This document shows, one piece after another, positions 50,628-64,000 of a stretch of 64,000 bases of DNA. Source of the stretch: Caulobacteraceae bacterium. Its GTDB lineage: Bacteria; Pseudomonadota; Alphaproteobacteria; Caulobacterales; Caulobacteraceae. How positions within the stretch are numbered: position 1 is the first letter of the stretch; each line of letters starts with the position of its first letter. The position numbers were made by a program, and so were the translations under genes. Below the pieces are notes generated by a model. It ran no database searches and was not told the DNA's origin. It saw only the letters and a list, made by a program, of their open reading frames with translations. The stretch covers positions 1,287,352 to 1,351,351 of the forward strand of contig OZ260070.1 of NCBI GenBank assembly GCA_965284305.1, written 5' to 3'.

Positions 50628-52037
50628 ATGCTGTTCCCCACGCTCGCCTTCGGCGTCTTCTTCCTGTTCGTCTATTTCACCGCCTGGTCGCTGGATCGCG
50701 AGAACGGGCGGCGCAAGCTCTTCCTGCTGCTTGTCAGCTGGTTCTTCTACGCCCAGTGGGACTGGCGGTTCGTCGCCCTGCTGATCGCCTCCGCAGTGCT
50801 GAACTGGGCCATCGGCGCGCTGATCGCGCGGACGCGGGAGCGAGGCGACGAGCGCACGGCCTGGATGGTCGGCCTCGGGGTCGCCGCCAACCTGCTGATC
50901 CTCGGCTTCTTCAAATACTACGGCTTCTTCATCGAACAGGCCGGTGACCTGCTGATGCGGTTCGGCTGGGAGCGGGACCTGCCGCTGCTGCAGATCGTCC
51001 TGCCGGTGGGGATTTCCTTCTTCACCTTCCAGGGCATCAGCTACGTCGTCGACGTCCATCGCGGGAAGACGCCGCCGGCGAGGAGCCTGCTCGACGTCAT
51101 GCTGCTGATGAGCTTCTTCCCGCATCTGGTGGCGGGGCCGATCGTACGGGCCTCGGACCTGCTGCCGCAGTTCGACCAGGCCCCGCGGCTGACGCGGGTG
51201 ATGGCGACCCACGGCCTGCTGCTGATCGTCTGGGGCCTGTTCAAGAAGACGGTGATCGCGTCCGAACTGTCAGTGAACCTGGTCGATCCGGTGTTCTTCG
51301 ATCCCTCGGCCTATTCGGCCTTCGACATCGCGGCGGCGACCTATGGCTATGCGGTCCAGATCTATTGCGACTTCTCGGCCTATTCGGACATGGCGATCGG
51401 GATCGCCGCCCTGCTGGGCTATTCCTTCCCGCGCAATTTTGACCAGCCGTACCGGGCGTCGTCGATGCAGAGCTTCTGGCGGCGCTGGCATATCAGCCTG
51501 TCCAGCTGGCTGCGCGACTATCTCTATGTGCCGCTGGGCGGTGGTCGGAAGGGGCTGGTCTCGTCCTGCATCAACGTCTTCATCACCATGGTGCTGGGCG
51601 GGCTGTGGCACGGGGCAGCCTGGACCTTCCTGGCCTGGGGCGCGCTGCACGGCGGGGTGCAGGTGGTCGAACGGCTGGGTCGCGCGGCCTTCGGGGACCG
51701 CAAGGTCATCCCGACCGCGATCGGTGTGCTGGTCACCTTCCACATCGTCTGCCTGGGCTGGATCCTGTTCCGGGCCGAGACCTTCGAACTGGCCATGGCC
51801 ATGCTGCAGGGGCTGGGCAGGATGGGGCCGGTGACGGCGCTCACGCCGCTGCTGCTGACCGTGATCGTCGGCGGTCTGGCCATGCACTGGCTGCCACCCC
51901 GCGCCATCGAGGGCGTGGCCGAGCGGCTCAAGGCGGCGCCGTCGGTGACCCTGGGCCTGCTGATCGGCGCAGCCATCCTGCTGGTCGAGGCCGTGCGTCC
52001 CGAGGGCGTGGCCCCCTTCATCTATTTCCAGTTCTGA
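50628..52037 (+). CDS. MBOAT-family O-acyltransferase (AlgI/PatA/DltB-like)
   Basis: 469 aa, polytopic, with a conserved His region (WRRWHISLSSWLRDYLYVPLGG). Its start directly abuts the previous stop (TAGATG). Confidence 0.9.
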   Translation: MLFPTLAFGVFFLFVYFTAWSLDRENGRRKLFLLLVSWFFYAQWDWRFVALLIASAVLNWAIGALIARTRERGDERTAWMVGLGVAANLLILGFFKYYGFFIEQAGDLLMRFGWERDLPLLQIVLPVGISFFTFQGISYVVDVHRGKTPPARSLLDVMLLMSFFPHLVAGPIVRASDLLPQFDQAPRLTRVMATHGLLLIVWGLFKKTVIASELSVNLVDPVFFDPSAYSAFDIAAATYGYAVQIYCDFSAYSDMAIGIAALLGYSFPRNFDQPYRASSMQSFWRRWHISLSSWLRDYLYVPLGGGRKGLVSSCINVFITMVLGGLWHGAAWTFLAWGALHGGVQVVERLGRAAFGDRKVIPTAIGVLVTFHIVCLGWILFRAETFELAMAMLQGLGRMGPVTALTPLLLTVIVGGLAMHWLPPRAIEGVAERLKAAPSVTLGLLIGAAILLVEAVRPEGVAPFIYFQF

Positions 52038-52052
52038 GGCGTTGAGACGGCG

Positions 52053-52565
52053 ATGAACGACCACCGCGATCCCCCTGAAATCCCCCTGGAGCCGTTTCCG
52101 GTTCACCGGCCGGAATCGCCCTTTCCGCCCCTCTACGACAGCCTGCCGCCGGGAGCGGGCGATCCCCGCAGTGACTGGAACCGGAACGCCGACGCCCACG
52201 ACCTGGCCGTCGCTCATGATGCGGGGCCCGAGAACCGGCTGGCGGCGCTGGGCCGCTTCGCCTTTCCGCCCGCTCCGCCGCTGGACGACGAAGGCCTTGC
52301 CGCCCGCGACCGCCGCTGGACCACCCGCACGATCGTCATCAGCACGGCCTTCCTGCTGGTGTTCAACGCCGTCTCGCCCCTGAACTGGTCGCGACAGCAG
52401 GCACCATCCTGGCTGCAGGGGACGGTCCAGCAGATGTCCGAGGTCTGGGTTGGCCAGCTGGCGGTGTTCGGCGTGGACATGCCGCGCCAGGGCGTGCGCG
52501 AGGGCTGGATGGCGGTGCGGGACGCAAGGTTCGTGGGTCAGGAGCCGGCGGCGGGCGCGCCTTGA
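52053..52565 (+). CDS. hypothetical single-pass membrane protein
   Basis: 170 aa with a Pro-rich N-terminus and one TM segment (TIVISTAFLLVFNAV). It is the last gene of the MBOAT cluster. I recognise no family. Confidence 0.45.
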   Translation: MNDHRDPPEIPLEPFPVHRPESPFPPLYDSLPPGAGDPRSDWNRNADAHDLAVAHDAGPENRLAALGRFAFPPAPPLDDEGLAARDRRWTTRTIVISTAFLLVFNAVSPLNWSRQQAPSWLQGTVQQMSEVWVGQLAVFGVDMPRQGVREGWMAVRDARFVGQEPAAGAP

Positions 52566-52628
52566 CCGGAGCGGTGCCCCGCCCCTAGCTTGCAACGCCC
52601 ATCCGGGGCCGTTGTTTGGGAATGGATC

Positions 52629-55085
52629 ATGCGTCATCGTCTGCTCGGTCGGGCCCTGCCCGCCTTTGTGTTGCTGGCCGCGCTGGCCGGTCCCGTCATG
52701 GCGCAGGAAGGTCGCACCTATCAGCAGCCGCCGGCCCCGATCGCCGAGATTCTCGATACCAAACCGACCCCGTCGCCCAGCCTGTCGCCCGACCGGACCA
52801 TGCTGGCGCTGTTCGACCGGGCCAATCTGCCGCCGATCGCGGAACTGGCCGAGCCGATGCTGCGGCTGGGTGGTTACCGGATCAATCCGCGCAACAACGG
52901 CCAGGCCAACAGCCGGGTGGGCTGGTTGACCGGCCTGAGCTTCCAGCCGGTCGCCGGCGGGGCGGCGCGGACGGTGAGCCTGCCGGCCAATGCCCGCTTC
53001 CTCTCGCCGGGCTGGTCGCCAGACGGCCGCTCGGTGGCCATGCTGATGGACGCGCCGACTGGGTTGGAGCTGTGGACTGTGGATGTGGCCAGTGGCCGCG
53101 CGCGCAAATTGACGGACGCACGGGTCAATGCTGCGGGTGGCGGCGCTTTCGACTGGCTGCCTGACAGTTCGGGTCTGGTTGTGCGGATGACACCGGAAGG
53201 CCGCGGCCCGGCGCCTGACGTCAGCCGTCCGCCGGAAGGGCCGATCGTCGAGGAGAGCATGGGCCGCACCGCGCCGGCCCGGACCTATCAGGATCTGTTG
53301 TCCAACGCCGGCGACGAGGCCCTGTTCGACCACTATTTCACCTCGCAGTTGACGCTGGTCCCGCTTGCGGGGCCGGCGCGGAAGCTGGGTGCGCCCGCAG
53401 TCTATCTGGGTTCGGGCGTGTCGCCGGACGGGCGCTACATCCTGCAGACCACGGTGAAGCGGCCCTACAGCTATGTCGTACCGGCGGGCCTGTTCCCGGC
53501 CGAGGTGACGATCACGGACCTGCAGGGCCGGGTCGTGCACCGGGTCGCCGACCTGCCGCTGCGCGACAACATCCCGACGCCGTTCGACTCGGTGGCTCCC
53601 GGGCCGCGCTCGGCCCAGTGGCGGGCCGACGCGCCTTCGACCCTGGTCTGGGTCGAGGCCCAGGATGGCGGTGATCCGCGCACTGCGGCCGAGGTCCGGG
53701 ACCGGGTCTTCACCCTCGCAGCACCGTTCAACGGCCAGCCGGTCCCCCTGATCGATCTGAGGGACCGCTACGCCGGTATGGTCTGGGGCGATGCCGATAC
53801 GGCCCTGGTGGTCAGCCGACAGTTCAACAGCCGGCGCGAGACCCGGTATCTGGTCGATCCGTCCAACCCCGGTCAGGGCCGGGTGCTGCTCGAGCGAAAC
53901 TATCAGGACCGCTACAACGACCCGGGCACCCCGGTGACCGAACCCAATGCCAGCGGCTTTCCGGTGATGCGATTCAGCGCCGATGGATCGCGCGTGCTGA
54001 TGACCGGTGCCGGGGCCACACGGGCCGGGGAATATCCCTTCCTGTCGAGCCTGGACCTGGCCACCGGCGCGACCGAGCGGGTCTGGACCTCGGCGGAGGG
54101 GGTCTATGAGAGTGTCGTCGGCATCCTTGATGAGGATGGTCGCCGGATGGTGACGCGGCGCGAGACCCGCAACGATCCGCCCAACCTCTATGTCCGTGAT
54201 CTGGACGCCGATGCGACGCCACTGACCAGCTTCCCGGATCCCGCACCACAGATGGCCGGGGTGACGAAGCAGCTGATCAGCTACACCCGCGCCGACGGGG
54301 TGCAGCTGTCCGGGACGCTGTATCTGCCCGCCGGCTATGACAAGGGCAGCGACGGGCCGCTGCCGCTGGTGATGTGGGCCTATCCGGCCGAGTTCACCGA
54401 CGCGGCCGTGGCGGGGCAGGTGGTCGACACCGCCAACCGCTTCACCCGGCCGGGCGGTATCAGTCACCTGTTCCTGCTGACCCAAGGCTATGCCGTGCTG
54501 GACGATCCGTCGATGCCGATCGTCGGCGTCAACGGGGCCGAACCCAACGACACCTACATCCAGCAGCTGACGGCGAGCGCCGAGGCGGCGGTGAATGCGG
54601 TGGTGGAAATGGGCGTGGCCGACCGCGACCGGATCGCCGTCGGCGGGCACAGCTACGGTGCCTTCATGACCGCCAACCTGCTGGCCCACACCGACCTGTT
54701 CCGCACCGGCATCGCCCGTTCGGGTGCCTACAACCGCACCCTGACCCCGTTCGGCTTCCAGGCCGAGCAGCGGAGCTACTGGGAGGCGGGTGACACCTAT
54801 ACGGAGATGTCGCCCTTCACCTTCGCCAACCGGGTCAATGAGCCGATCCTGCTGATCCACGGGGAGGCCGACGACAACTCCGGCACCTTCCCGGTTCAGT
54901 CGGAACGCTTCTATGCGGCCCTGAAGGGCAATGGTGCCAATGTCCGCTACGTCGTCCTGCCGCTGGAGGCGCACGGCTACCGCGCGCGGGAATCGGTCGG
55001 CCACACCCAGTGGGAGATGACCCGCTGGCTGGACCAGTACCTGAAGAACGCCGGGCCACGGACGGTGCCGACCGCGGCTCCCTGA
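52629..55085 (+). CDS. S9-family serine peptidase with an N-terminal beta-propeller
   Basis: It has a signal peptide (MRHRLLGRALPAFVLLAALAGPVMAQ), the nucleophile motif GGHSYGAF, and a C-terminal Asp/His region (HGEADDN...EAHGY). Confidence 0.9.
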   Translation: MRHRLLGRALPAFVLLAALAGPVMAQEGRTYQQPPAPIAEILDTKPTPSPSLSPDRTMLALFDRANLPPIAELAEPMLRLGGYRINPRNNGQANSRVGWLTGLSFQPVAGGAARTVSLPANARFLSPGWSPDGRSVAMLMDAPTGLELWTVDVASGRARKLTDARVNAAGGGAFDWLPDSSGLVVRMTPEGRGPAPDVSRPPEGPIVEESMGRTAPARTYQDLLSNAGDEALFDHYFTSQLTLVPLAGPARKLGAPAVYLGSGVSPDGRYILQTTVKRPYSYVVPAGLFPAEVTITDLQGRVVHRVADLPLRDNIPTPFDSVAPGPRSAQWRADAPSTLVWVEAQDGGDPRTAAEVRDRVFTLAAPFNGQPVPLIDLRDRYAGMVWGDADTALVVSRQFNSRRETRYLVDPSNPGQGRVLLERNYQDRYNDPGTPVTEPNASGFPVMRFSADGSRVLMTGAGATRAGEYPFLSSLDLATGATERVWTSAEGVYESVVGILDEDGRRMVTRRETRNDPPNLYVRDLDADATPLTSFPDPAPQMAGVTKQLISYTRADGVQLSGTLYLPAGYDKGSDGPLPLVMWAYPAEFTDAAVAGQVVDTANRFTRPGGISHLFLLTQGYAVLDDPSMPIVGVNGAEPNDTYIQQLTASAEAAVNAVVEMGVADRDRIAVGGHSYGAFMTANLLAHTDLFRTGIARSGAYNRTLTPFGFQAEQRSYWEAGDTYTEMSPFTFANRVNEPILLIHGEADDNSGTFPVQSERFYAALKGNGANVRYVVLPLEAHGYRARESVGHTQWEMTRWLDQYLKNAGPRTVPTAAP

Positions 55086-55163
55086 CCGGCGTTCGTCAGG
55101 AATCGACAGGCCCCGCCCGGCCCTGCGCGTGGTCATCTGCGCGCGGGACTGGAGGGACATTCC

Positions 55164-55541
55164 ATGAAAACGCTTCTTCGTGCCGCCGCCGCGGCAACCG
55201 TCATCGGCCTGGCCGGCACCCTGTCGGGCTGTGCGTCGCTGATCACCGGCGGTGAGCTGATCCGGCCGGGTGAGCCCACGGGCGGCCTGCAGATTCGCAA
55301 TGTGTCGGGGACCAACTCCATCGACGTGGTGCTGGTCTCGGACTGCAACGCCCACACCTATGGCCTGAACCGGCTGCCCTCGGGCTATCGCATTCCGCCG
55401 GGCGGCAGCTATACCTTCACCCTCTCCGCCGGCTGCTGGGATGTGGGTGCGGGTGAGGTCCTGAGCCAGAACTCCTGGACCGAGGGCTATACCAAGGTGA
55501 CGGTCTTCCCCGGACGGACCACGACGGTCCAGTCGCGCTGA
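55164..55541 (+). CDS. small lipoprotein, hypothetical
   Basis: 125 aa with a lipobox (LSGC). The mature part contains two further Cys residues. I recognise no family. Confidence 0.55.
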   Translation: MKTLLRAAAAATVIGLAGTLSGCASLITGGELIRPGEPTGGLQIRNVSGTNSIDVVLVSDCNAHTYGLNRLPSGYRIPPGGSYTFTLSAGCWDVGAGEVLSQNSWTEGYTKVTVFPGRTTTVQSR

Positions 55542-55628
55542 CACTGATCCTTTGTGGCGGCGCAACATTCCTGTTGCGCCAGCGCCGTTTGTCGGGTCAC
55601 GCTGCAAGATCGTTGCAGTGGGAGCGGC

Positions 55629-57053
55629 ATGGCCTTCGACGAGATGTCAGGTGAGACGTCCGGTTACGGCGGGGCCGTCCGCGAAAGCTATCGCGGGCTC
55701 GCCCGCTGGCTGGTCGATGCCCCGGAAGGATTGCTCCAGGCGCGCTCCCGCCAGGCGGAGCTGTTCTTCCGCCGCATGGGCATCACCTTCGCCGTCTATG
55801 GCGATGCCGAATCCAGTGAACGGCTGATCCCGTTCGATGTGGTGCCCCGCATCATCGGCGCCGCCGAATGGGCCGGGCTCGAGGCCGGGCTGACCCAGCG
55901 GGTGCGGGCGATCAACCTGTTCCTGGCCGACGTCTATGGTCCGCAGGAGTGTCTGAAGGCCGGGATCGTCCCGGCCGAGCTGATCCTGACCAATCCCCAC
56001 TATGTGCCCGAGATGCAGGGCCGCCGGCCGCCGCGCGGGGTCTGGGTCCATATCGCCGGCGTCGATCTGGTGCGCACGGGCGAGGACGGCTTCTACGTGC
56101 TGGAAGACAACTGCCGCACGCCGTCGGGGGTCTCCTACATGCTGGAGAACCGCGAGATGATGATGCGGTTGTTCCCCGACCTGTTCGCCGACTATCCGGT
56201 GCGGCCGGTCGAGACCTATACCGACATGCTGCTGGCCAGCCTGCGCGGTTCGGCGCCCGAGGCGGCGGGGCCGGATCCGACCATCGTCGTCCTGACGCCG
56301 GGGCCGTTCAACTCGGCCTATTACGAACACTCCTTCCTGGCCGACAAACTGGGCGTCGATCTGGTCGAGGGGCGCGATCTGTTCGTCGACGACGGCAAGG
56401 TCTTCATGCGCACGACCCAGGGCCGTCAGCAGGTCGATGTTGTCTACCGCCGGATCGACGACGACTTCCTCGATCCCCTGACCTTCCGGCCGGACTCAAC
56501 GCTCGGCGTGCCGGGGCTGATGACGGCCTATCAGGCCGGGACCGTAACCCTGGCCAACGCGGTCGGGACCGGCGTCGCCGACGACAAGGCCGTCTACACC
56601 TATATGCCCGAGATCATCCGCTTCTTCACCGGCGAGGAGCCGATCCTGAAGAACGTCCCGACCTGGCGCTGCCGCGAGCCGGAGGCGCTGAAGGAGGTGC
56701 TGTCGAAACTGGACCAGCTGGTGGTCAAGGAGGTCGGCGGCTCGGGCGGCTACGGCATGCTGGTGGGACCGGCCTCGACCAAGGCCGAGATCGAGGCCTT
56801 CCGGAAGAAGCTGATCAACGACCCCGATGACTTCATCGCCCAGCCGACGCTGGACCTGTCGACCGCGCCGACGCTGGACAAGGGCGAACTTCACGGCCGC
56901 CACGTCGATCTGCGGCCGTTCGTGCTGTCGAGCCCCGACGGGGTGAAGGTGGCGCCCGGCGGGCTGACACGTGTGGCGCTGAAGCCTGGGTCGCTGGTGG
57001 TCAACTCCAGCCAGGGCGGCGGAACCAAGGACACCTGGGTGCTGGATGTTTGA
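55629..57053 (+). CDS. circularly permuted type-2 ATP-grasp protein
   Basis: VDVVYRRIDDDFLDPLTFRPDSTLGVPGLMTAYQAGTVTLANAVGTGVADDKAVYTYMPEIIRFF is the family signature. I chose the ATG preceded by GGGAG. Confidence 0.85.
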   Translation: MAFDEMSGETSGYGGAVRESYRGLARWLVDAPEGLLQARSRQAELFFRRMGITFAVYGDAESSERLIPFDVVPRIIGAAEWAGLEAGLTQRVRAINLFLADVYGPQECLKAGIVPAELILTNPHYVPEMQGRRPPRGVWVHIAGVDLVRTGEDGFYVLEDNCRTPSGVSYMLENREMMMRLFPDLFADYPVRPVETYTDMLLASLRGSAPEAAGPDPTIVVLTPGPFNSAYYEHSFLADKLGVDLVEGRDLFVDDGKVFMRTTQGRQQVDVVYRRIDDDFLDPLTFRPDSTLGVPGLMTAYQAGTVTLANAVGTGVADDKAVYTYMPEIIRFFTGEEPILKNVPTWRCREPEALKEVLSKLDQLVVKEVGGSGGYGMLVGPASTKAEIEAFRKKLINDPDDFIAQPTLDLSTAPTLDKGELHGRHVDLRPFVLSSPDGVKVAPGGLTRVALKPGSLVVNSSQGGGTKDTWVLDV

Positions 57054-57067
57054 GATCATCAAACATC

Positions 57068-57200
57068 CCGCTCGTCCCGGCGAAAGCCGGGACCCAGTCC
57101 TGTCCAGATTGGCGACAGGGCATGGGATTGGCGTCTCTGCCAAGGCACCAGACGCTGGTCATCCAAAGAACTGGGTCCCGGCTTTCGCCGGGATGAGCGG
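57068..57200. mobile_element. MITE/REP-like nested-hairpin repeat, copy B
   Basis: The terminal inverted repeats are CCGCTCGTCCCGGCGAAAGCCGGGACCCAGT (57068-57098) and ACTGGGTCCCGGCTTTCGCCGGGATGAGCGG (57170-57200), 30/31 complementary. It shares the ends and subterminal motifs (CTGTCCAG, CCAAAGAACTGGGTCCC) with copy A. Confidence 0.7.
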
Positions 57201-57203
57201 AAT

Positions 57204-58136
57204 ATGCTGAGCCGCACCGCAGACAGCCTGTACTGGACCGGCCGCTATATCGAGCGGGCGGACTTCCTCGCCCGCATCCTCGAGGCGACGCTGCGTCTCG
57301 CCGCCATTCCGACGCGCGGTGATGGCGATGCGGAGACGGTCTGGGCCAGCGCCCTGGCCTCGGCCGGAGCGCCCAAGGCGCTGGGCCGGTCGCCGACCGA
57401 GAAATCGGTGCGCGAATATCTGGCCTTCGCCCCCAACAACGCCTCGTCGATCACCGCCTGCATCACCCGCGCGCGCACCAACGCCCGCTCGGTGCGCACG
57501 GCCCTGACGGTCGAGCTCTGGGAAGCCATCAACGGCGCCTGGAACGGTCTGGAGGAGCAGGGCCAGCCGACCCGTCGCGACGAGTTCGCGCGGTTCCTCG
57601 AATGGGTGAAGACGGTCACCCTGTCGGTCGAGGGCGCGACCTCGCGGACCATGCTCCGCAACGACGGCTATTATTTCCTGCGGCTGGGCGCGGCGATCGA
57701 GCGGGCCGACAACACGGCGCGGCTGCTGGACGTGAAATACCATCTGCTGCTGCCCGAGGGCGAACGGGTCGGGGGTCAGCTGGACTATTTCCAGTGGACG
57801 ACCCTGCTGCGCGAAGTCTCGGCGCTGACGGCCTATCGCTGGGTTTACCGGGATAGCGTCAAGCCCTGGCTGGTGGCCGACCTGCTGGTGCTGAACCGGC
57901 AGATGCCGCGCTCGCTGGCCAGCTGCCAGGCCTCGATCGTGCGGTATCTGGAGCGGCTGGCCAATGACTATGGCCGGCGCGGCCCGGCGCAGCGGCTGGC
58001 GGCGGACCGGATGCGGGCGTTCGACAACTCGCGCATCGAGGACATCTTCCAGTCGGGTCTGCACGAATACATCCAGGCCTTCCTCGGCGAGAACGGCCGT
58101 CTGGGGCAGGCCATCCATGACCAGTATCTGAGCTGA
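57204..58136 (+). CDS. alpha-E domain protein
   Basis: 310 aa. MLSRTADSLYWTGRYIERADFLARIL is the characteristic alpha-E N-terminus. Confidence 0.85.
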   Translation: MLSRTADSLYWTGRYIERADFLARILEATLRLAAIPTRGDGDAETVWASALASAGAPKALGRSPTEKSVREYLAFAPNNASSITACITRARTNARSVRTALTVELWEAINGAWNGLEEQGQPTRRDEFARFLEWVKTVTLSVEGATSRTMLRNDGYYFLRLGAAIERADNTARLLDVKYHLLLPEGERVGGQLDYFQWTTLLREVSALTAYRWVYRDSVKPWLVADLLVLNRQMPRSLASCQASIVRYLERLANDYGRRGPAQRLAADRMRAFDNSRIEDIFQSGLHEYIQAFLGENGRLGQAIHDQYLS

Positions 58137-58139
58137 CCT

Positions 58140-58967
58140 GTGCGCATCAGCATCGACCACGCGACCACCTATGCCTACGACCGGGCGGCGCGTTTCATCA
58201 TCCAGACCCTGAGGCTGACGCCCCGCTCGTCCGAGGCGCAGCAGGTCCGCAACTGGCGGGTCGAGACCGATGTCGACGCCCGCCTGCGCAAGTCCGAGGA
58301 CGCCTTCGGCAACATCGTCCACACCCTCTACACCGAACAGCCGACCCAGAGCCTGACGGTCCGGGTCTCGGGCGAGGTGGTGACCACGGATACGGCCGGC
58401 GTCGTGCCGGCGGGGCAGGAGACGCTGTCGCCGCTGGTCTTCCTGCGCGACACCGCCCTGACGCGGCGGGACAAGCTGATCTCGGTCTTCGCTTCGGAGT
58501 TCTCGGCCCATCCGCCGCTCGAGCGGCTGCACCGGTTGATGGCGGGGATCCACGGCTCGGTGGCCTTCGAGGTCGGGGTGACGACGCCGACCCATACGGC
58601 GGCCGAGGTGTTGGCCCTCGGTCGCGGCGTCTGTCAGGACCACGCCCACGTCTTCATCGCCTGCGCCCGGCAGATGGGCATGCCCGCCCGTTATGTCTCG
58701 GGCCATCTGCTGCGCCGCGACGGCAAGGACGATCAGGAGGCGGCGCATGCCTGGGCCGAGGCCTGGATTCCGGACCTTGGCTGGGTCGGCTTCGACCCGG
58801 CCAATGGCATCTGTTCGACGGACCGCTATGTGCGGGTCGCGGCCGGGCTGGACTATCGCGGCGCGGCCCCGGTGCGCGGGGCCAGCTACGGCGGCGGGGG
58901 CGAGCGACTGGCCGTGCGGCTGAACGTGCGTGATGCCGACATGCAACAGGGTCAGCAACAGGCTTAG
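58140..58967 (+). CDS. transglutaminase-like cysteine protease/ligase family protein
   Basis: 275 aa with Cys-His-Asp motifs GRGVCQDHAH, AAHAWAEAW and GFDPANG. The start is GTG, 3 nt after the alpha-E stop. Confidence 0.85.
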   Translation: MRISIDHATTYAYDRAARFIIQTLRLTPRSSEAQQVRNWRVETDVDARLRKSEDAFGNIVHTLYTEQPTQSLTVRVSGEVVTTDTAGVVPAGQETLSPLVFLRDTALTRRDKLISVFASEFSAHPPLERLHRLMAGIHGSVAFEVGVTTPTHTAAEVLALGRGVCQDHAHVFIACARQMGMPARYVSGHLLRRDGKDDQEAAHAWAEAWIPDLGWVGFDPANGICSTDRYVRVAAGLDYRGAAPVRGASYGGGGERLAVRLNVRDADMQQGQQQA

Positions 58968-59041
58968 GCTGTGGGTTATCTGACGCGGGAATCTGTTACC
59001 GTGGCCGTCATGACGGACGGGCAGTGGGGATTGCGCGCCGC

Positions 59042-59806
59042 ATGACCTATTGCGTGGGCATGCTGGTGGAGGACGGGTTGGCGTTGATCGCCGACACGCG
59101 CACCAATGCGGGCGTCGACAGCATCTCGACCTATCGCAAGCTGCATGTCGTCGATCGGCCGGGCGAGCGCGTGCTGGGCATCTGCACGGCCGGCAACCTC
59201 TCCGTCACCCAGACGGCCCTGGCCATGGCGCGCGAGGGCGTCCACCTGAATGTCGGCGAGCCGGCCGAGACGCTGGAGACCGCGCCGACGCTGTTCCGCT
59301 GCGCCCAGATCCTGGGCCACGCCCTGCGCAGCGTCCGGCTGTCGATCTCGCCGGCGCTGGAGGCCGACAGCCTGAACACCTCGGCCTCGATGCTGCTGGG
59401 CGGCCAGATCAACGGCGGCCAGATGGGGCTGTTCCTGATCTACAGCCAGGGCAATTTCATCGAATGCGGGCAGGACACCCCCTACCTCCAGATCGGCGAG
59501 CTGAAGTACGGCAAGCCGATCCTCGAGAGCGGGCTGGCGTTCGACACACCGCTCGCCGAGGCCGTGAAGCTCGGGCTGATCTCATTCTCGACCACGATGC
59601 GTTCGAACGTCGGCGTGGGCGCGCCGTTCGATGTCCTGACCCTGCGCCGGGACTATTTGAGCGGCGACCAGCGGCGGCTCGAACAGGACGATTCCTATTT
59701 CGCCGACCTGCACCTACGCTGGACCCAGGCCCAGGCGGCCGCGCGCCGGTCGATGCCCGAGCCGCCGTGGATGAAGCGCGCCCGACCGTCAGTCGTCGAA
59801 GGCTGA
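59042..59806 (+). CDS. proteasome-type (Ntn hydrolase) protease
   Basis: The N-terminus MTYCVGMLVEDGLALIADTRTNAG places Thr immediately after the initiator Met, as expected for an N-terminal nucleophile. Confidence 0.8.
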   Translation: MTYCVGMLVEDGLALIADTRTNAGVDSISTYRKLHVVDRPGERVLGICTAGNLSVTQTALAMAREGVHLNVGEPAETLETAPTLFRCAQILGHALRSVRLSISPALEADSLNTSASMLLGGQINGGQMGLFLIYSQGNFIECGQDTPYLQIGELKYGKPILESGLAFDTPLAEAVKLGLISFSTTMRSNVGVGAPFDVLTLRRDYLSGDQRRLEQDDSYFADLHLRWTQAQAAARRSMPEPPWMKRARPSVVEG

Positions 59807-59872
59807 AGGGCATGGAAGGGCCCGAGAACGGGTGTGCGTCCCCAGAGTTGAACAAGTGTCTAGCCAGTGTGA

Positions 59873-60637
59873 CTAGGGCTTGCTCGGGGGGGCGGGTGTT
59901 GCCGCTGGCGCTGCGACCGTCGCAGGTACCGGACCTTTGGCACGCTTCGGCTTGGCGGGGATGGAGGCTTTCAGGCCTAGTGCCTTCTTCTCGACGATGA
60001 ATGCCTTTTGAAGGAACACCTCCATTACCGTGATCAACTGGGACGCTTCGTCAGCGTCAGGGCTCCACCCTCGGTGAGCCGCTGCACTGCCTGCGTCGAT
60101 CACCACTTCTAGAATCTGCTTCTCCGTATCGCCGATCCAGCCACCCGTCTGAAGCTCCTTAAGCTTCTCTTGGAAGGATTTCGCGGCGTCGATGCCCAGC
60201 AGCTCGGTAGCACGGTCGATTGCCGTCCTGATCCCCACAGTCGCCAAGATGAGCAAGTTGCTGTCATAGGCGAGATAAGTCTCGTCTAGGATTCGACCTA
60301 GCTGGGAATCGGCCTTCTGAACTTGGGGGAACCAAAGCGGCTTGGTTTTGCTGGTCGGCTTGGGATAGGTCGTGAGGGTCCGAAAGTATGCGCTGCCAGT
60401 TGAACCGTCAGGTTCATACCAGTGGTCAATATCCTCGCTGTCATAACTCGACTGCCGATAGAATACGGTTTCGCACCCGCGACATTGAAGCAAGGCATGG
60501 TCAGCGCCTCCGTTCATAGAGTGCTGCTTGTCGGCGGATTCCCAATCCCAAGAAGTCTTAGTCGTCCCGTGAACGTCGCAGACCCGCTCCCCGTCACACT
60601 CGGGACAGTGGGCTTTCAGGGTGGCAGGTGCGGTCAT
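59873..60637 (-). CDS. zinc-ribbon plus DUF4145 domain protein on a low-GC islet
   Basis: 254 aa. The N-terminus has CPECDG...CRGC. The C-terminal text ILATVGIRTAIDRATELL...KLKELQTGGWIGDTEKQILEVVIDAGSAAAHRGWSPDADEA fits DUF4145. The tail is Pro/Ala/Lys-rich. GC content is visibly lower than in the neighbouring genes. Confidence 0.7.
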   Translation of the reverse strand: MTAPATLKAHCPECDGERVCDVHGTTKTSWDWESADKQHSMNGGADHALLQCRGCETVFYRQSSYDSEDIDHWYEPDGSTGSAYFRTLTTYPKPTSKTKPLWFPQVQKADSQLGRILDETYLAYDSNLLILATVGIRTAIDRATELLGIDAAKSFQEKLKELQTGGWIGDTEKQILEVVIDAGSAAAHRGWSPDADEASQLITVMEVFLQKAFIVEKKALGLKASIPAKPKRAKGPVPATVAAPAATPAPPSKP

Positions 60638-60712
60638 GGCGGAACGCTAGTCGGCGGCGGGCATCCGCTCAACACGATTTGCTCGACCCGCAAATGTTGA
60701 AGGCAGGAAAGC

Positions 60713-60756
60713 GGGGACGCGCACCACCCATTTGGTCGAAGGTGGCGCGCGTCCCC
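60713..60756 (-). terminator. 16-bp-stem hairpin just downstream of the amidohydrolase gene
   Basis: GGGGACGCGCACCACC (60713-60728) pairs with GGTGGCGCGCGTCCCC (60741-60756), 15/16 complementary. On the minus strand it is followed by GCTTTCC, so the U-tract is weak. Confidence 0.5.
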
Positions 60757-60762
60757 CGATAG

Positions 60763-63700
60763 CTAGTGACCGTGGCCGTCGGTCTCGGCCTCCGTCGCCC
60801 CCGCGGCCCAGCCTTCACCACCGGTTTCAGCGAACCAGAACGGCGCACGCGCCCGCTGGCGCGGAGCCACTTCGTTCATGCCGGAGTCGTACACCCGGCC
60901 GTTGGCGATCGTGTAGGCGATCGAGGTGGTGTTGCGGATGTTCTCGAGCGGGTTCTGATCCATCACCACCATGTCGGCCAGCTTGCCGACTTCCAGCGAG
61001 CCGATGTCGCGGTCCAGCCCCAGCGCCCGGGCGCCGTTCAGGGTGCCGGCGCGGATCACGTCGATCGGCGCCATCCCGCCCTGGGCCAGGCTCCACAGCT
61101 CCCAGTGCGCCGCCAGCCCTTCGCGCTGGCCATGCGCGCCGATCAGGACGCTGACGCCCTGTTCGGACAGACGGGTGGCCTCACGGGCGACGGAGATGTG
61201 GTTCCACTCAGTGTCGGGCAGGGTCACCGGCCGACGCGCACGGGAGTCGAGGATGCGGCGCGGGACGTACTGGGTCAGGATCGGATGGTTCCAGACCTCG
61301 CTCTCCTGGTACCAGTAGTTTTCGCCGTAGCTGCCGCCATAGGCCACCACCAGGGTCGGGTTGTAGGCCACCCCGGTCTGACGCCACAGTTGGTGGACGT
61401 CGTCGTACAGGCGCGCCAGCGGGATCGAATGCTCGATCGTCGTGTGGCCGTCGACGATCATCGACATATTGTGCTGGAACAGCGAGCCGCCCTCCGGCAC
61501 CACCATCATATTCAGCTGGCGCGCGGCCTCGATGATCTGCTGGCGCTGGTCGCGGCGGGGCTGGTTGTAGCTCTTGACGCTCCAGGCGCCCGCCGCCTGC
61601 ATCCGCCGCAGGGTCGACAGGGCGTCGTCGAGGTCATCGACCTGGGCCGTGAAGCCCGTGCTGGCGCCGTAGAGGATGGTGCCGGTCGAGAAGATGCGCG
61701 GCGCCGTGATCCGGCCCGTACGGGCCAGTTCGCTGTGGGCGAAGATCTCGCTGGTGTCGGCCGAGGGGTTGTGGATCGTGGTCACCCCGAAGGCCAGCGA
61801 GGCGTAGTCGACCCAGCTCTGTTCTGGGATGATCTCGTCCGACCCCATCGAGCCGTGCCAGTGGGCGTCGATCAGGCCGGGCATGATGGTCTTGCCGGCC
61901 ATGTCCATGACCGGCACGCCGGCTGGGACAGGGGTGCTGGCGGCCGCACCGATGGCCTCGATCCGGTTGCCGTTGACGATGACCACGCCGTTCTCGATCA
62001 CCTCGGCGCCGTTCATTGTGATCAGCCGCGCGCCGGTCAGGGCCATGCGGCCTTCGGGCACGTCGGCCTGGGCGCTGAAGCTCAGGTTGATCCCGGTCTC
62101 GTCGGGCCTGGGCAGCTCGTCCGGCGCGCCGTCCACGAAGGTGAAGGCCTGGTTCAGGTCGCGGGTGAACAGTTCCGGCCCCAGCGACCACTGCAGTCGC
62201 TGCGAGTCGCCTGACCAGCTCAGCCACTCGCCGGCGTCGCGGGTGACGCGGGCCTGGGGCAGGGACTTGCCTTCGGCGCTGATGGTGACCGGGCGGCCTG
62301 CGGCGACGAAGGGGGCCACATAGGCATTGAACCGCTCGGTCCAGCCGATCCAGTTCCCGTCGGGTGAGACGGCGAATTCACTGGCCCATTCCGAGGTCAG
62401 GTGGGTGCGTTCGTCGCTGCCGTCCAGATCGACCGAGATCAGGGTCTGGCTGGTCCCTTCGCGGCTGGACAGGAACAGGCGGTCGTTGTCAGCGGCGAAC
62501 TGGGGCCGCGATCCCTCTTCGGTCACAAGGGCCGGCTCTCCGCCGGCCGTCGGGATGCGATAGATGCCGGGATCGCGGGTCCACAGGGCCGACATCAGGG
62601 AGCCGCCGCCGGTGGTGCGATAGACGACCGTGCGACCGTCCGGCGAGAATACCGGCTCGACATAGTGGCCGGGGTTGGGGGTGATGACGCGGCCGACGCC
62701 GCCCGAGACCGGGACCACCCGGACCGAGCCAAGCGCCTGATCGTCCCAGGTCGTATAGACGATGGAGCGGCCGTCGCGGGACCAGTTCGGATAGAGTTCG
62801 AAATGGTCGTTCTGGCGGGTCAGCCGGCGTGCGGTTCCGGTCGGCAGGTCGCGAATCCACAGATTGCCGAGGGCCTCGAACACGACCCTGGTGCCGTCCG
62901 GTGAGGGCCGGGCCCAGCGGATCATGCGGACGTCGAATGTGTCCGGCGCGACCTCGACGGGGAAGCGGACCGTGTCCTGCACCCGGCGGGTATCGGCGAC
63001 ATGGAAGGGAATGTCGGCGACCGCCTGGGTGGCGACCTCGACGCGCTGGATGCGGCCGTCGGCCCAGAAGACGATGGAGCGGTTGTCGGGGGTCCAGCTG
63101 ATCGCCGGATAGACGCCGTGGATGGCCCAGGTTTCCTGCAGGTCGCGGTCGAGGCCCGAGAAGATCGGGGTCTCGCGCCCGGACTCGATGTCCATGACAT
63201 AGAGGGTCGACTGGTAGCGAACGCGGCGGATGAAGGCGATCGACTTGCCGTCAGGCGACGGCGTGGGCCGGATCGAGCCGCCCGGGCCGGTGATATAGGG
63301 ATCGACCTCGCCCGTCTCACGGTCCAGACGGCGGATGATGTAGATCTGGTCGTTGACGTCCTTGGAGTATTCGAAGGTCGCCCCCGGCGTGGCGTCGTCG
63401 CTGAAATAGACATAGCGGCCGTCCGGCGAGAAGGCGGGCTCGCCCGTGTCCTTCTGCTGGGTCCGGCGCTCGGTCATCTGCACGCCGTTGCCGCCCGAGC
63501 GGTGGTACATCCACAACTCCCCGGCCCCCAGCGAGCGGGACGAGGTGAAATGTTTCCGCGCCACGATGAACTGGCCGTCCGGCGACCACTCCGGCTGGTT
63601 CAGCAGGCGGAAGCTCTCTTTCGACACCTGGGTCGGGTTGGAGCCGTCGGCCTCCATGATCCAGATGTTGTCGCCGCCCGCCCGGTCCGAGGTGAAGGCG

Positions 63701-64000
63701 ATGAGGCGGCCGTCGGGCGACCATTTCGGCTGCATGTCCCAGGCCACGCCCGAGGCGATGGCCCGTGCCTCGCCCCCGCTGACGGGCATGACATAGATGT
63801 CGCCCAGCATGTCGAAAACGATGGTCTGGCCGTCCGGGCTGACGTCCAGCGACATCCAGGTGCCGCGGGTCACATCGATCGGGATGTCGCGCGACGGTCC
63901 CGGCGGGTTCTGCACATCCCATTTGGGCGTCTCGGCCGGAGCGGCGACGGCGGGCGCGGCCGCCGGTCCAGCGGCCGCCGGCGGCTCGACCAGTCCGGGG
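60763..64000 (-). CDS. secreted TolB-like beta-propeller / amidohydrolase fusion protein (5' end outside the window)
   Basis: The N-terminal half has PD40-type repeats (SPDG... many times). The C-terminal part is an amidohydrolase domain with the metal motif LIDAHWHG. The frame stays open from 63915 to the window edge (PGLVEPPAAAGPAAAPAVAAPAETPKWDV), so the true start is probably beyond 64000. Confidence 0.85.
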   Translation of the reverse strand, partial: PGLVEPPAAAGPAAAPAVAAPAETPKWDVQNPPGPSRDIPIDVTRGTWMSLDVSPDGQTIVFDMLGDIYVMPVSGGEARAIASGVAWDMQPKWSPDGRLIAFTSDRAGGDNIWIMEADGSNPTQVSKESFRLLNQPEWSPDGQFIVARKHFTSSRSLGAGELWMYHRSGGNGVQMTERRTQQKDTGEPAFSPDGRYVYFSDDATPGATFEYSKDVNDQIYIIRRLDRETGEVDPYITGPGGSIRPTPSPDGKSIAFIRRVRYQSTLYVMDIESGRETPIFSGLDRDLQETWAIHGVYPAISWTPDNRSIVFWADGRIQRVEVATQAVADIPFHVADTRRVQDTVRFPVEVAPDTFDVRMIRWARPSPDGTRVVFEALGNLWIRDLPTGTARRLTRQNDHFELYPNWSRDGRSIVYTTWDDQALGSVRVVPVSGGVGRVITPNPGHYVEPVFSPDGRTVVYRTTGGGSLMSALWTRDPGIYRIPTAGGEPALVTEEGSRPQFAADNDRLFLSSREGTSQTLISVDLDGSDERTHLTSEWASEFAVSPDGNWIGWTERFNAYVAPFVAAGRPVTISAEGKSLPQARVTRDAGEWLSWSGDSQRLQWSLGPELFTRDLNQAFTFVDGAPDELPRPDETGINLSFSAQADVPEGRMALTGARLITMNGAEVIENGVVIVNGNRIEAIGAAASTPVPAGVPVMDMAGKTIMPGLIDAHWHGSMGSDEIIPEQSWVDYASLAFGVTTIHNPSADTSEIFAHSELARTGRITAPRIFSTGTILYGASTGFTAQVDDLDDALSTLRRMQAAGAWSVKSYNQPRRDQRQQIIEAARQLNMMVVPEGGSLFQHNMSMIVDGHTTIEHSIPLARLYDDVHQLWRQTGVAYNPTLVVAYGGSYGENYWYQESEVWNHPILTQYVPRRILDSRARRPVTLPDTEWNHISVAREATRLSEQGVSVLIGAHGQREGLAAHWELWSLAQGGMAPIDVIRAGTLNGARALGLDRDIGSLEVGKLADMVVMDQNPLENIRNTTSIAYTIANGRVYDSGMNEVAPRQRARAPFWFAETGGEGWAAGATEAETDGHGH

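Follow-up and report, generated by a model that had tools for sequence, protein, structure and literature searches.

The locus described here lies in a window of 64,000 nucleotides (nt) from a Caulobacteraceae bacterium (contig OZ260070.1; all positions count from the first letter of this window) and consists of four genes between 55629 and 59806, co-directional open reading frames (ORFs) on the + strand, as the preliminary description had it. They are almost certainly the Brevundimonas copy of the canonical Anbu operon, in which a circularly permuted ATP-grasp ligase is followed by an Alpha-E protein, a transglutaminase-like enzyme and Anbu (ancestral beta subunit), here of the Anbu-1 type; this identity follows from the family assignments, the kept gene order and the match to three published descriptions. 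Anbu was named by Valas & Bourne (2008; PMC3235984), who described it as adjoining COG2308, COG2307 and COG1305 in cyanobacteria and in alpha-, beta- and gamma-proteobacteria; the operon is given as four genes in conserved order by Piasecka et al. (PMC6376114), and Fuchs et al. (PMC5666114) report the same genomic context for Anbu. The locus shows all the features that define the Anbu operon and Anbu-1, as far as these can be judged from sequence, and the catalytic or signature residues are intact in all four proteins. The genes are as follows:

55629-57053, + strand: gene 1, circularly permuted ATP-grasp ligase, 474 amino acids (ATG start; an in-frame GTG lies at 55554)
57204-58136, + strand: gene 2, Alpha-E protein, 310 amino acids (Pfam Alpha-E)
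58140-58967, + strand: gene 3, transglutaminase-like Cys-His-Asp enzyme, 275 amino acids (GTG start)
59042-59806, + strand: gene 4, Anbu of the Anbu-1 type, an N-terminal-nucleophile hydrolase, 254 amino acids (ATG start; an in-frame GTG lies at 59024)

The choice of ATG in genes 1 and 4 is backed by the aligned 5' regions of their orthologues (n = 66 and n = 79, respectively). In gene 1, a GGGAG Shine-Dalgarno sequence followed by ATGGCC is conserved; in gene 4, the start ATGACC (Met-Thr) is invariant in the 79 orthologous spacers, and the in-frame sequence upstream of it shows no conservation.

The preliminary description had taken the block for an undescribed system; it is in fact an already known operon, named and described in 2008-2009 (PMC3235984), with Anbu structures published in 2017-18 and its biochemistry studied in part. 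The label "biochemically uncharacterised" holds for the substrate side, but not for structures, inhibitor binding, ATP phosphate release and pull-downs, all of which have been published (PMC5666114, PMC6376114). That no substrate, product or phenotype has been demonstrated is still correct: the literature to 2026 yielded none for the Anbu operon, nor any later functional assignment. The comparative-genomics proposal of a role in peptide ligation or tagging, which the preliminary description mentioned without a source, does exist; it is that of Iyer et al. (2009), as cited in PMC5666114, PMC6376114 and PMC3495828.

Family assignments of the four proteins

Profile hidden Markov models from Pfam bear out the four assignments made beforehand, and matches in the Protein Data Bank (PDB) sharpen that of gene 4 from proteasome-beta-like to Anbu; the intact Cys-His-Asp set of gene 3 and the Met-Thr start of gene 4 are likewise as first described. 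Gene 1 matches CP_ATPgrasp_2 over the entire model (E = 9.6e-168, positions 1-374 of 374) and CP_ATPgrasp_1 (E = 2.7e-154), with no family besides CP_ATPgrasp reported by the scan; among the four genes it shows the highest conservation, with 62-68% identity across distant loci. Its only solved homologue, PDB 3N6X, is a close orthologue (E = 9.9e-190 over residues 16-472) and carries the annotation putative glutathionylspermidine-synthase-like. The predicted reaction of gene 1 is an ATP-dependent carboxylate-amine ligation; release of phosphate from ATP has been reported for the ATP-grasp protein of Yersinia bercovieri (PMC6376114). Rv2569c, the subject of a published claim of a secreted protease, is a different paralogue.

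The product of gene 2 matches Alpha-E over its full length (E = 7.1e-90, model positions 1-294 of 294) and contains two ER motifs, RYIERAD at residues 14-20 and AIERADN at 163-169. In an alignment of 44 diverse homologues, the invariant residues include R14, R18, R24, R91, R98, E166 and R173, and E17 and R167 are kept in at least 90% of the sequences. An invariance that involves mainly arginines and the glutamates of the two ER motifs is a hint that Alpha-E may bind an anionic ligand, with which it would be compatible. An AlphaFold2 model built from the 44 homologues (predicted local distance difference test, pLDDT, 95.3; predicted template-modelling score, pTM, 0.93) is entirely helical, with 14 helices and 0 strands. 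It has no relative among solved structures in a Foldseek search (best E 0.49, template-modelling score at most 0.27), and the PDB sequence search with gene 2 came back empty; Alpha-E, alone among the four components, appears to be a fold without an experimental structure. The family is large, comprising 5412 clusters at 50% identity (E <= 1e-3).

Gene 3 combines Bact_transglu_N (E = 1.1e-21) with Transglut_core (E = 8.2e-23). Its triad is formed by Cys165 in GRGVCQDH, His203 in HAWAEAW and Asp219 in GFDPANG, of which Cys165 and His203 align with their catalytic counterparts in PDB 3ISR (E = 2.5e-9).

For gene 4, Pfam gives a match to Proteasome (E = 8.4e-6), and the NCBIfam model of the archaeal beta subunit gives only 16 bits against a cutoff of 224; all five matches in the PDB sequence search are Anbu entries (5LOY, 5NYJ, 5NYF, 5LOX and 5NYW, E = 4e-74 to 1e-55), the best being 5LOY, a designed Anbu-1 consensus protein. 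The protein begins MTYCVG, so that Thr1 stands straight after the initiator Met with no propeptide, and Asp17 and Lys32 are present. Its S1 pocket, T20/Y30/T48/L52/T55, differs by two conservative changes from the T20/F30/T48/L52/S55 of Pseudomonas aeruginosa Anbu-1 (PMC5666114) and is of the amphiphilic Anbu-1 type, as opposed to the basic pocket of Anbu-2. The alignment with 5LOY reaches residue 243 of gene 4 and residue 239 of the 240 in 5LOY; the C-terminal region, which forms the helical extension H5 in Anbu-1, is thus present. In crystal and small-angle X-ray scattering structures, Anbu forms a dodecameric split ring (PMC5666114, PMC6376114). None of the four translations, read by eye, has an N-terminal hydrophobic signal-like stretch, such as the one in a neighbouring lipoprotein.

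Gene order, junctions and promoters

Conservation was followed in two sets of loci. The genome set, for which one genome per species was scanned, comprises 80 loci, nearly all from Brevundimonas, with one each from Oceanicaulis and Glycocaulis; its closest match to the window has 98% identity in Anbu, which places the window in Brevundimonas. The metagenome set, collected with an alignment of 12 Alpha-E sequences, comprises 80 more distant loci at 53-94% identity. The order ATP-grasp, Alpha-E, transglutaminase-like, Anbu on one strand is found in all loci of the genome set that are long enough to show it. Where at least 3.5 kb downstream of Alpha-E is available in the metagenome set (n = 46), the transglutaminase-like gene is present in 46/46 loci and Anbu, on the same strand, in 40/46; of the 55 loci that extend far enough upstream, 50 have ATP-grasp directly before Alpha-E. 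The synteny across relatives that had been proposed as a check on the block is thus borne out, and Anbu, which is missing nearby in 6 of the 46 distant loci that keep genes 1-3, is not obligatory.

The description of the genes as tightly spaced fits genes 2 and 3, which are 3 nt apart, but not genes 1 and 2 (150 nt) or genes 3 and 4 (74 nt). In most loci, genes 1 and 2 are separated by -1 or 0 nt, their stop and start codons merging as TGATG or TGAATG, and genes 2 and 3 by 2-4 nt; on these junction sequences, the pattern is the signature of translational coupling across genes 1-3, and it is ancestral. Anbu, for its part, is preceded by a spacer of 61-90 nt in all loci. The 150-nt gap between genes 1 and 2 of the window is due to an inserted element:

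57054-57203, no strand: inserted palindromic repeat of about 150 nt that looks like a miniature transposable element and interrupts the ancestral overlap between the stop of gene 1 and the start of gene 2
57074-57097 (+ strand) and 57171-57194 (- strand): its terminal inverted repeats, GTCCCGGCGAAAGCCGGGACCCAG

The element has a predicted fold of -111 kcal/mol (z = -12.9); in Rfam it gives nothing but sub-threshold matches to microRNA hairpins. The same junction carries a repeat element in loci L004, L006, L010, L016-L018, L022, L028, L033, L034, L036, L042, L065 and L075, mostly of 135-188 nt, with one 69-nt copy in L036. At least three unrelated families of palindromic repeats have inserted here in different Brevundimonas lineages; the junction is thus a hotspot for such insertions, which the operon tolerates.

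Two further intergenic regions, one upstream of gene 1 and one between genes 3 and 4, contain candidate regulatory sites:

55562-55577, no strand: perfect palindrome GCAACATTCCTGTTGC, candidate operator, with arms GCAACA-N4-TGTTGC
55574-55579: -35-like TTGCGC, overlapped by the right arm of the palindrome
55598-55603: -10-like CACGCT upstream of gene 1, with a conserved CA...T 18 nt past the -35-like TTGC
58989-58998, + strand: GAATCTGTTA, an invariant motif lying between genes 3 and 4 and a candidate for either an internal promoter or a regulatory site

Both the palindrome and the spacer motif occur once in the window. The arms of the palindrome do not vary among the Brevundimonas, Oceanicaulis and Glycocaulis loci, whichever gene lies upstream; in 1.28 Mb of loci (66 with intact 5' ends), GCAACA-N4-TGTTGC is found 56 times within 150 nt upstream of ATP-grasp and once elsewhere. 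The spacer motif, in the form GAATC[T/G]G[C/T]TA, has 70 occurrences, all of them 41-64 nt ahead of the Anbu ATG, and none elsewhere in the same 1.28 Mb. Since their conserved bases are invariant and do not co-vary, both are read as sites in DNA and not as RNA structure.

Distant loci have a different element upstream of gene 1. In the 200 nt that precede ATP-grasp, 42/53 of them have a strict sigma-54 -24/-12 element, TGGC-N7-TTGC (control rate, 0.7% of random 200-mers), which lies 57-158 nt upstream of the start codon (loci L088-L158); it is absent from all 66 Brevundimonas and Maricaulaceae loci, including the window. A consensus scan of the window returned no sigma-70 promoter and no convincing terminator. 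The comparison points to a Brevundimonas lineage in which the sigma-54 promoter would have been swapped for a sigma-70-like promoter overlapped by the conserved palindrome.

In other lineages, the operon has been tied to nitrogen limitation, a link that the preliminary description did not make. The ATP-grasp/Alpha-E/transglutaminase cluster I35_5080-83 of Burkholderia cenocepacia depends on NtrC and sigma-54 (PMC5491218); in P. putida, PP_2688 and PP_2685 are about 16- to 22-fold higher on nitrate than on ammonium (PMC8050072); and induction by nitrogen limitation in Pseudomonas is also credited to Hervas 2008 in PMC3235984. Anbu is not induced by heat shock (PMC3235984, PMC6376114). For the regulator at the palindrome, NtrC was considered and rejected, the half-site spacing being N10 instead of N9 and ntrC being reportedly lacking in Brevundimonas, which keeps ntrX (bioRxiv 10.1101/2023.06.06.543975). 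The published NtrX motifs are GCA-N9-TGC and CAA-N2-5-TTG (PMC9223101); the palindrome can be read as GCA-N10-TGC or CAA-N8-TTG, near to these but not identical, and NtrX is a candidate regulator.

In the spacer motif, TGnTA resembles an extended -10 element and GAATC fits GANTC, the target of the CcrM methylase; the region is a candidate for Anbu's own promoter. The corresponding spacers of distant loci contain TTGC-N17-20-YTATA in 10/42 cases, at a control rate of 0.02%. In P. putida, the region upstream of PP_2688 answers nitrogen limitation, and the one upstream of PP_2685 (Anbu) is a constitutive promoter (PMC8050072). Taken together, the spacer motifs and these fragments make two promoters apparent, one that is regulated and serves all four genes, and a constitutive one in front of Anbu; judged by sequence, this layout appears to be kept from gamma- to alpha-proteobacteria.

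Such a layout could also mean that two units share the locus: genes 1-3 would form one pathway, and Anbu would be an independent, constitutive housekeeping protease that receives read-through and has no substrate in common with them. The spacer of constant length with its conserved promoter-like element sets Anbu apart, the P. putida fragment is constitutive, genes 1-3 do without Anbu in the six distant loci mentioned above as well as in Anbu-less genomes (PMC3235984), and no physical interaction has been found (PMC6376114). Against this, Anbu lies immediately downstream and in the same orientation in the 80 genome loci and in 40/46 metagenome loci, and likewise in alpha-, beta- and gamma-proteobacteria and in cyanobacteria (PMC3235984), a linkage so persistent that it is hard to explain without a functional tie; moreover, Anbu mRNA rises together with ATP-grasp mRNA in P. 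putida (PMC8050072). We regard two separate units as unlikely.

Neighbouring genes

The operon is flanked in the window by the following genes:

52590-55085, + strand: S9-family serine peptidase with a beta-propeller, 831 amino acids, directly upstream of the lipoprotein and operon region
55164-55541, + strand: predicted lipoprotein, 125 amino acids, with a signal peptide, the lipobox LSGC and no family match
59873-60637, - strand: DUF4145 gene, inside a low-GC insertion of about 920 nt
60763-63915, - strand: convergent downstream gene, 1050 amino acids, with PD40 beta-propeller repeats and an amidohydrolase domain (Pfam)

None of these belongs to the operon in a conserved manner. The lipoprotein and the DUF4145 gene, both pointed out in the preliminary description as the nearest unexplained small genes, were rejected as partners: the lipoprotein lies upstream of the operon only in some close relatives and, being exported, is an unlikely substrate for a cytoplasmic ATP-grasp enzyme, and the DUF4145 gene is found in 0/80 genome loci and 0/80 metagenome loci. 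The latter is the sole gene of an insertion specific to the window (about 59835-60755, GC content 0.60 as compared to 0.68), which lies between the stop codon of Anbu and that of the convergent gene. The S9 peptidase stands beside the operon only in near relatives. Flanking genes vary between lineages, and no tag gene, precursor gene or fifth conserved partner is found across the 80 genome and 80 metagenome loci; that no precursor gene is obvious, as first remarked, is thus borne out. A fifth gene or small precursor ORF was also sought in the enlarged transglutaminase-Anbu gaps of a few distant loci and rejected, the genes there being mutually unrelated (a two-component system, a GT4 glycosyltransferase, a hexapeptide transferase, an acyl-CoA dehydrogenase, a solute-binding protein and a Sel1 protein). 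No AAA+ ATPase is seen by Pfam scan among the neighbouring genes, which comprise the S9 peptidase, the lipoprotein without a family match, DUF4145 and the PD40/amidohydrolase protein, and none of seven proteins has an anti-phage defence match in PADLOC.

These surroundings bear on the original reading of 2009, non-ribosomal peptide synthesis, in which ATP-grasp and Alpha-E would build a peptide and the transglutaminase-like enzyme and Anbu would act as its maturation peptidases. ATP-grasp peptide ligases of this kind do exist. The prediction is quoted in PMC5666114, whose authors consider it less likely. In none of the lineages examined does the operon contain, or lie near, a gene for an exporter, for immunity or for a precursor, and PADLOC gives no match; control by nitrogen limitation, near-universal presence on the chromosome and the single-copy order, in turn, look like core physiology and not like secondary metabolism. 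Of the readings weighed here this is the least likely, and we consider it very improbable.

Several other ORFs of the region were noted in passing. On the + strand, a 482-amino-acid ORF (60766-62214) over the PD40/amidohydrolase gene finds no match in Pfam and has the look of a shadow ORF, as is typical of high-GC sequence; a 1445-amino-acid ORF on the - strand (51270-55607) is likewise without a Pfam match. The S9 peptidase bears a weak resemblance to Atxe2-family lasso-peptide isopeptidases, at 80 bits, far under the cutoff of 400. Further upstream, 50628-52565 (+ strand) holds an MBOAT/DltB-like membrane O-acyltransferase (469 amino acids; TIGR04091, 166 bits against a cutoff of 375) followed by a 170-amino-acid ORF without a family match; the two are kept together in close relatives.

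Function of the operon and related systems

The reading that we favour, tentatively and well short of regarding it as established, is that of a cytoplasmic module which makes and breaks peptide or protein amide bonds and is tied to nitrogen economy. The ATP-grasp enzyme would hydrolyse ATP, activate a carboxylate and ligate it to an amine, a sequence from which the release of phosphate has been shown in Y. bercovieri. Alpha-E would act with it, given the ancestral coupling of their genes, and, having many invariant Arg and Glu residues, may serve to hold the target or an acidic substrate. The ligation would add an amino-acid or short peptide tag encoded outside the operon, which the transglutaminase-like Cys-His-Asp enzyme would trim, transfer or remove. 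Anbu, whose split ring and inhibitor binding have been shown elsewhere, would degrade marked or unfolded polypeptides for amino-acid recycling. In most lineages, genes 1-3 would be under a nitrogen-regulated sigma-54 promoter, and Anbu would additionally be expressed from its own constitutive one. A protease role is favoured by the binding of inhibitors to Anbu and by a ring with many identical active sites (PMC5666114); the binding of proteasome inhibitors to Anbu-1 is covalent (PMC5666114, PMC6376114).

A number of points weigh against the module as just outlined. Standard fluorogenic peptides are not cleaved by Anbu-1 (PMC5666114, PMC6376114), which is inactive on standard proteasome substrates (PMC6376114); pull-downs with the four Y. 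bercovieri proteins gave no specific interaction or stable complex, and Anbu did not stimulate the ATPase activity of the ATP-grasp protein (PMC6376114). Neither a tag gene nor any fifth partner travels with the operon, and a number of distant loci keep genes 1-3 without Anbu. The family named in the annotation of 3N6X, glutathionylspermidine-synthase-like, acts on small molecules and not on proteins. Finally, the link to nitrogen comes from other lineages: in the Brevundimonas loci the sigma-54 element is lacking, and ntrC is reported to be missing from the genus.

Several of these points would be accommodated by small-molecule amide metabolism for the scavenging or storage of nitrogen, in which ATP-grasp and Alpha-E would make an amide of low molecular weight, such as a conjugate of the gamma-glutamyl or polyamine kind. 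The transglutaminase-like thiol enzyme would then be the matching amidase, and Anbu an N-terminal-nucleophile amidase instead of a protease. The closest solved structure, 3N6X, speaks for it by its annotation, and the glutathionylspermidine enzyme is likewise built from a synthetase and a Cys-His amidase. So does the failure of Anbu to cleave the peptides tested, some hydrolases of its class being known to cleave non-peptide amides (PMC6376114), as do the NtrC co-regulation with urea, nitrate and polyamine genes (PMC5491218, PMC8050072) and the want of a linked gene for a protein or peptide substrate. The S1 pocket of Anbu, however, is proteasome-like and the protein reacts with peptide-based proteasome inhibitors (PMC5666114); its split-ring dodecamer suggests processive proteolysis (PMC5666114); and the M. 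tuberculosis homologues Rv2411c and Rv2567 came out as negative candidates for the synthesis of gamma-aminobutyric acid (GABA)-trehalose, the sole metabolite tested and thus a very narrow test (2026 preprint, bioRxiv 10.64898/2026.04.15.718621). Small-molecule metabolism is the main rival of the favoured module, possible if somewhat unlikely.

Among known systems, the nearest are the Anbu operons of Pseudomonas (PA1733 in P. aeruginosa; PP_2685-PP_2688 in P. putida) and Y. bercovieri, which have the same four families in the same order and on one strand. They share the Anbu-1 type, the Met-Thr start without a propeptide, Thr1, Asp17 and Lys32, a near-identical S1 pocket and the absence of a linked AAA+ ATPase; with P. 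putida, the window further shares the promoter-like spacer before Anbu, comparable to the constitutive PP_2685 fragment. The proteins show no difference, and the window departs from these operons only in the type of promoter and in the repeat of about 150 nt between genes 1 and 2.

The Pup-proteasome system of Actinobacteria (PafA, Dop, 20S) is a functional analogue only. In mycobacteria, it serves amino-acid recycling under nitrogen starvation. In both systems, an ATP-dependent carboxylate-amine ligase occurs together with an amidase or deamidase and with a hydrolase of the proteasome family; the Pup ligase, however, is glutamine-synthetase-like where an ATP-grasp enzyme stands here, and its amidase is a PafA paralogue (Dop) in place of a papain/transglutaminase-like protein. 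The Anbu operon has neither a Pup-like tag gene nor an AAA+ unfoldase, and Anbu is an open split ring as compared to the closed 20S barrel. Membership in the Pup-proteasome system was rejected, the Pup, PafA/Dop, 20S alpha/beta core and Mpa families being absent from the region.

Glutathionylspermidine synthetase/amidase (GspSA) resembles the operon in pairing a synthetase with a Cys-His thiol amidase, which in GspSA act on the same amide bond; here, gene 1 belongs to CP_ATPgrasp, the thiol enzyme is a separate protein with a transglutaminase core and Bact_transglu_N, and Alpha-E and Anbu have no GspSA counterpart. With the RimK and tubulin tyrosine ligase-like taggers and the peptidases that reverse them, the operon would share a logic proposed by Zhang & Aravind (PMC3495828), by which tags of amino acids are put on by an ATP-grasp enzyme and taken off again by a peptidase of the transglutaminase-like kind; those enzymes belong to an ATP-grasp clade different from that of gene 1. 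HslV of the HslVU system is, like Anbu, a bacterial proteasome-beta homologue with a Thr1 nucleophile, but the Anbu operon has no HslU-like ATPase and differs in quaternary structure, gene context and regulation. Identity with HslVU or with a known defence system was rejected on the family searches and PADLOC.

At its most far-reaching, the favoured module could be a third bacterial pathway of tagging and degradation after ssrA and pupylation: ATP-grasp and Alpha-E would attach a non-ribosomal tag, an amino acid or short peptide, to proteins of the cytoplasm under nitrogen starvation, the transglutaminase-like enzyme would edit it, and Anbu would degrade the tagged product in a split ring without an ATPase, with control in Brevundimonas moved from NtrC and sigma-54 to an NtrX-like regulator that would bind GCAACA-N4-TGTTGC on a sigma-70 promoter. 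In this full form, the proposal is speculative and probably does not hold.

The Anbu operon is among the most widespread conserved bacterial gene sets of unknown biochemical function, and Anbu bears on ideas about the origin of the proteasome. The present locus is an ordinary copy, which brings no new component and makes the question of function no easier to test. What it adds are small matters of regulation: the coupling of genes 1-3 with the repeat insertion that interrupts it, the lack of the sigma-54 element together with the presence of the palindrome, and the spacer motif before Anbu. Among these, the operator sequence GCAACATTCCTGTTGC offers a concrete handle on the regulator and the inducing condition in Brevundimonas.

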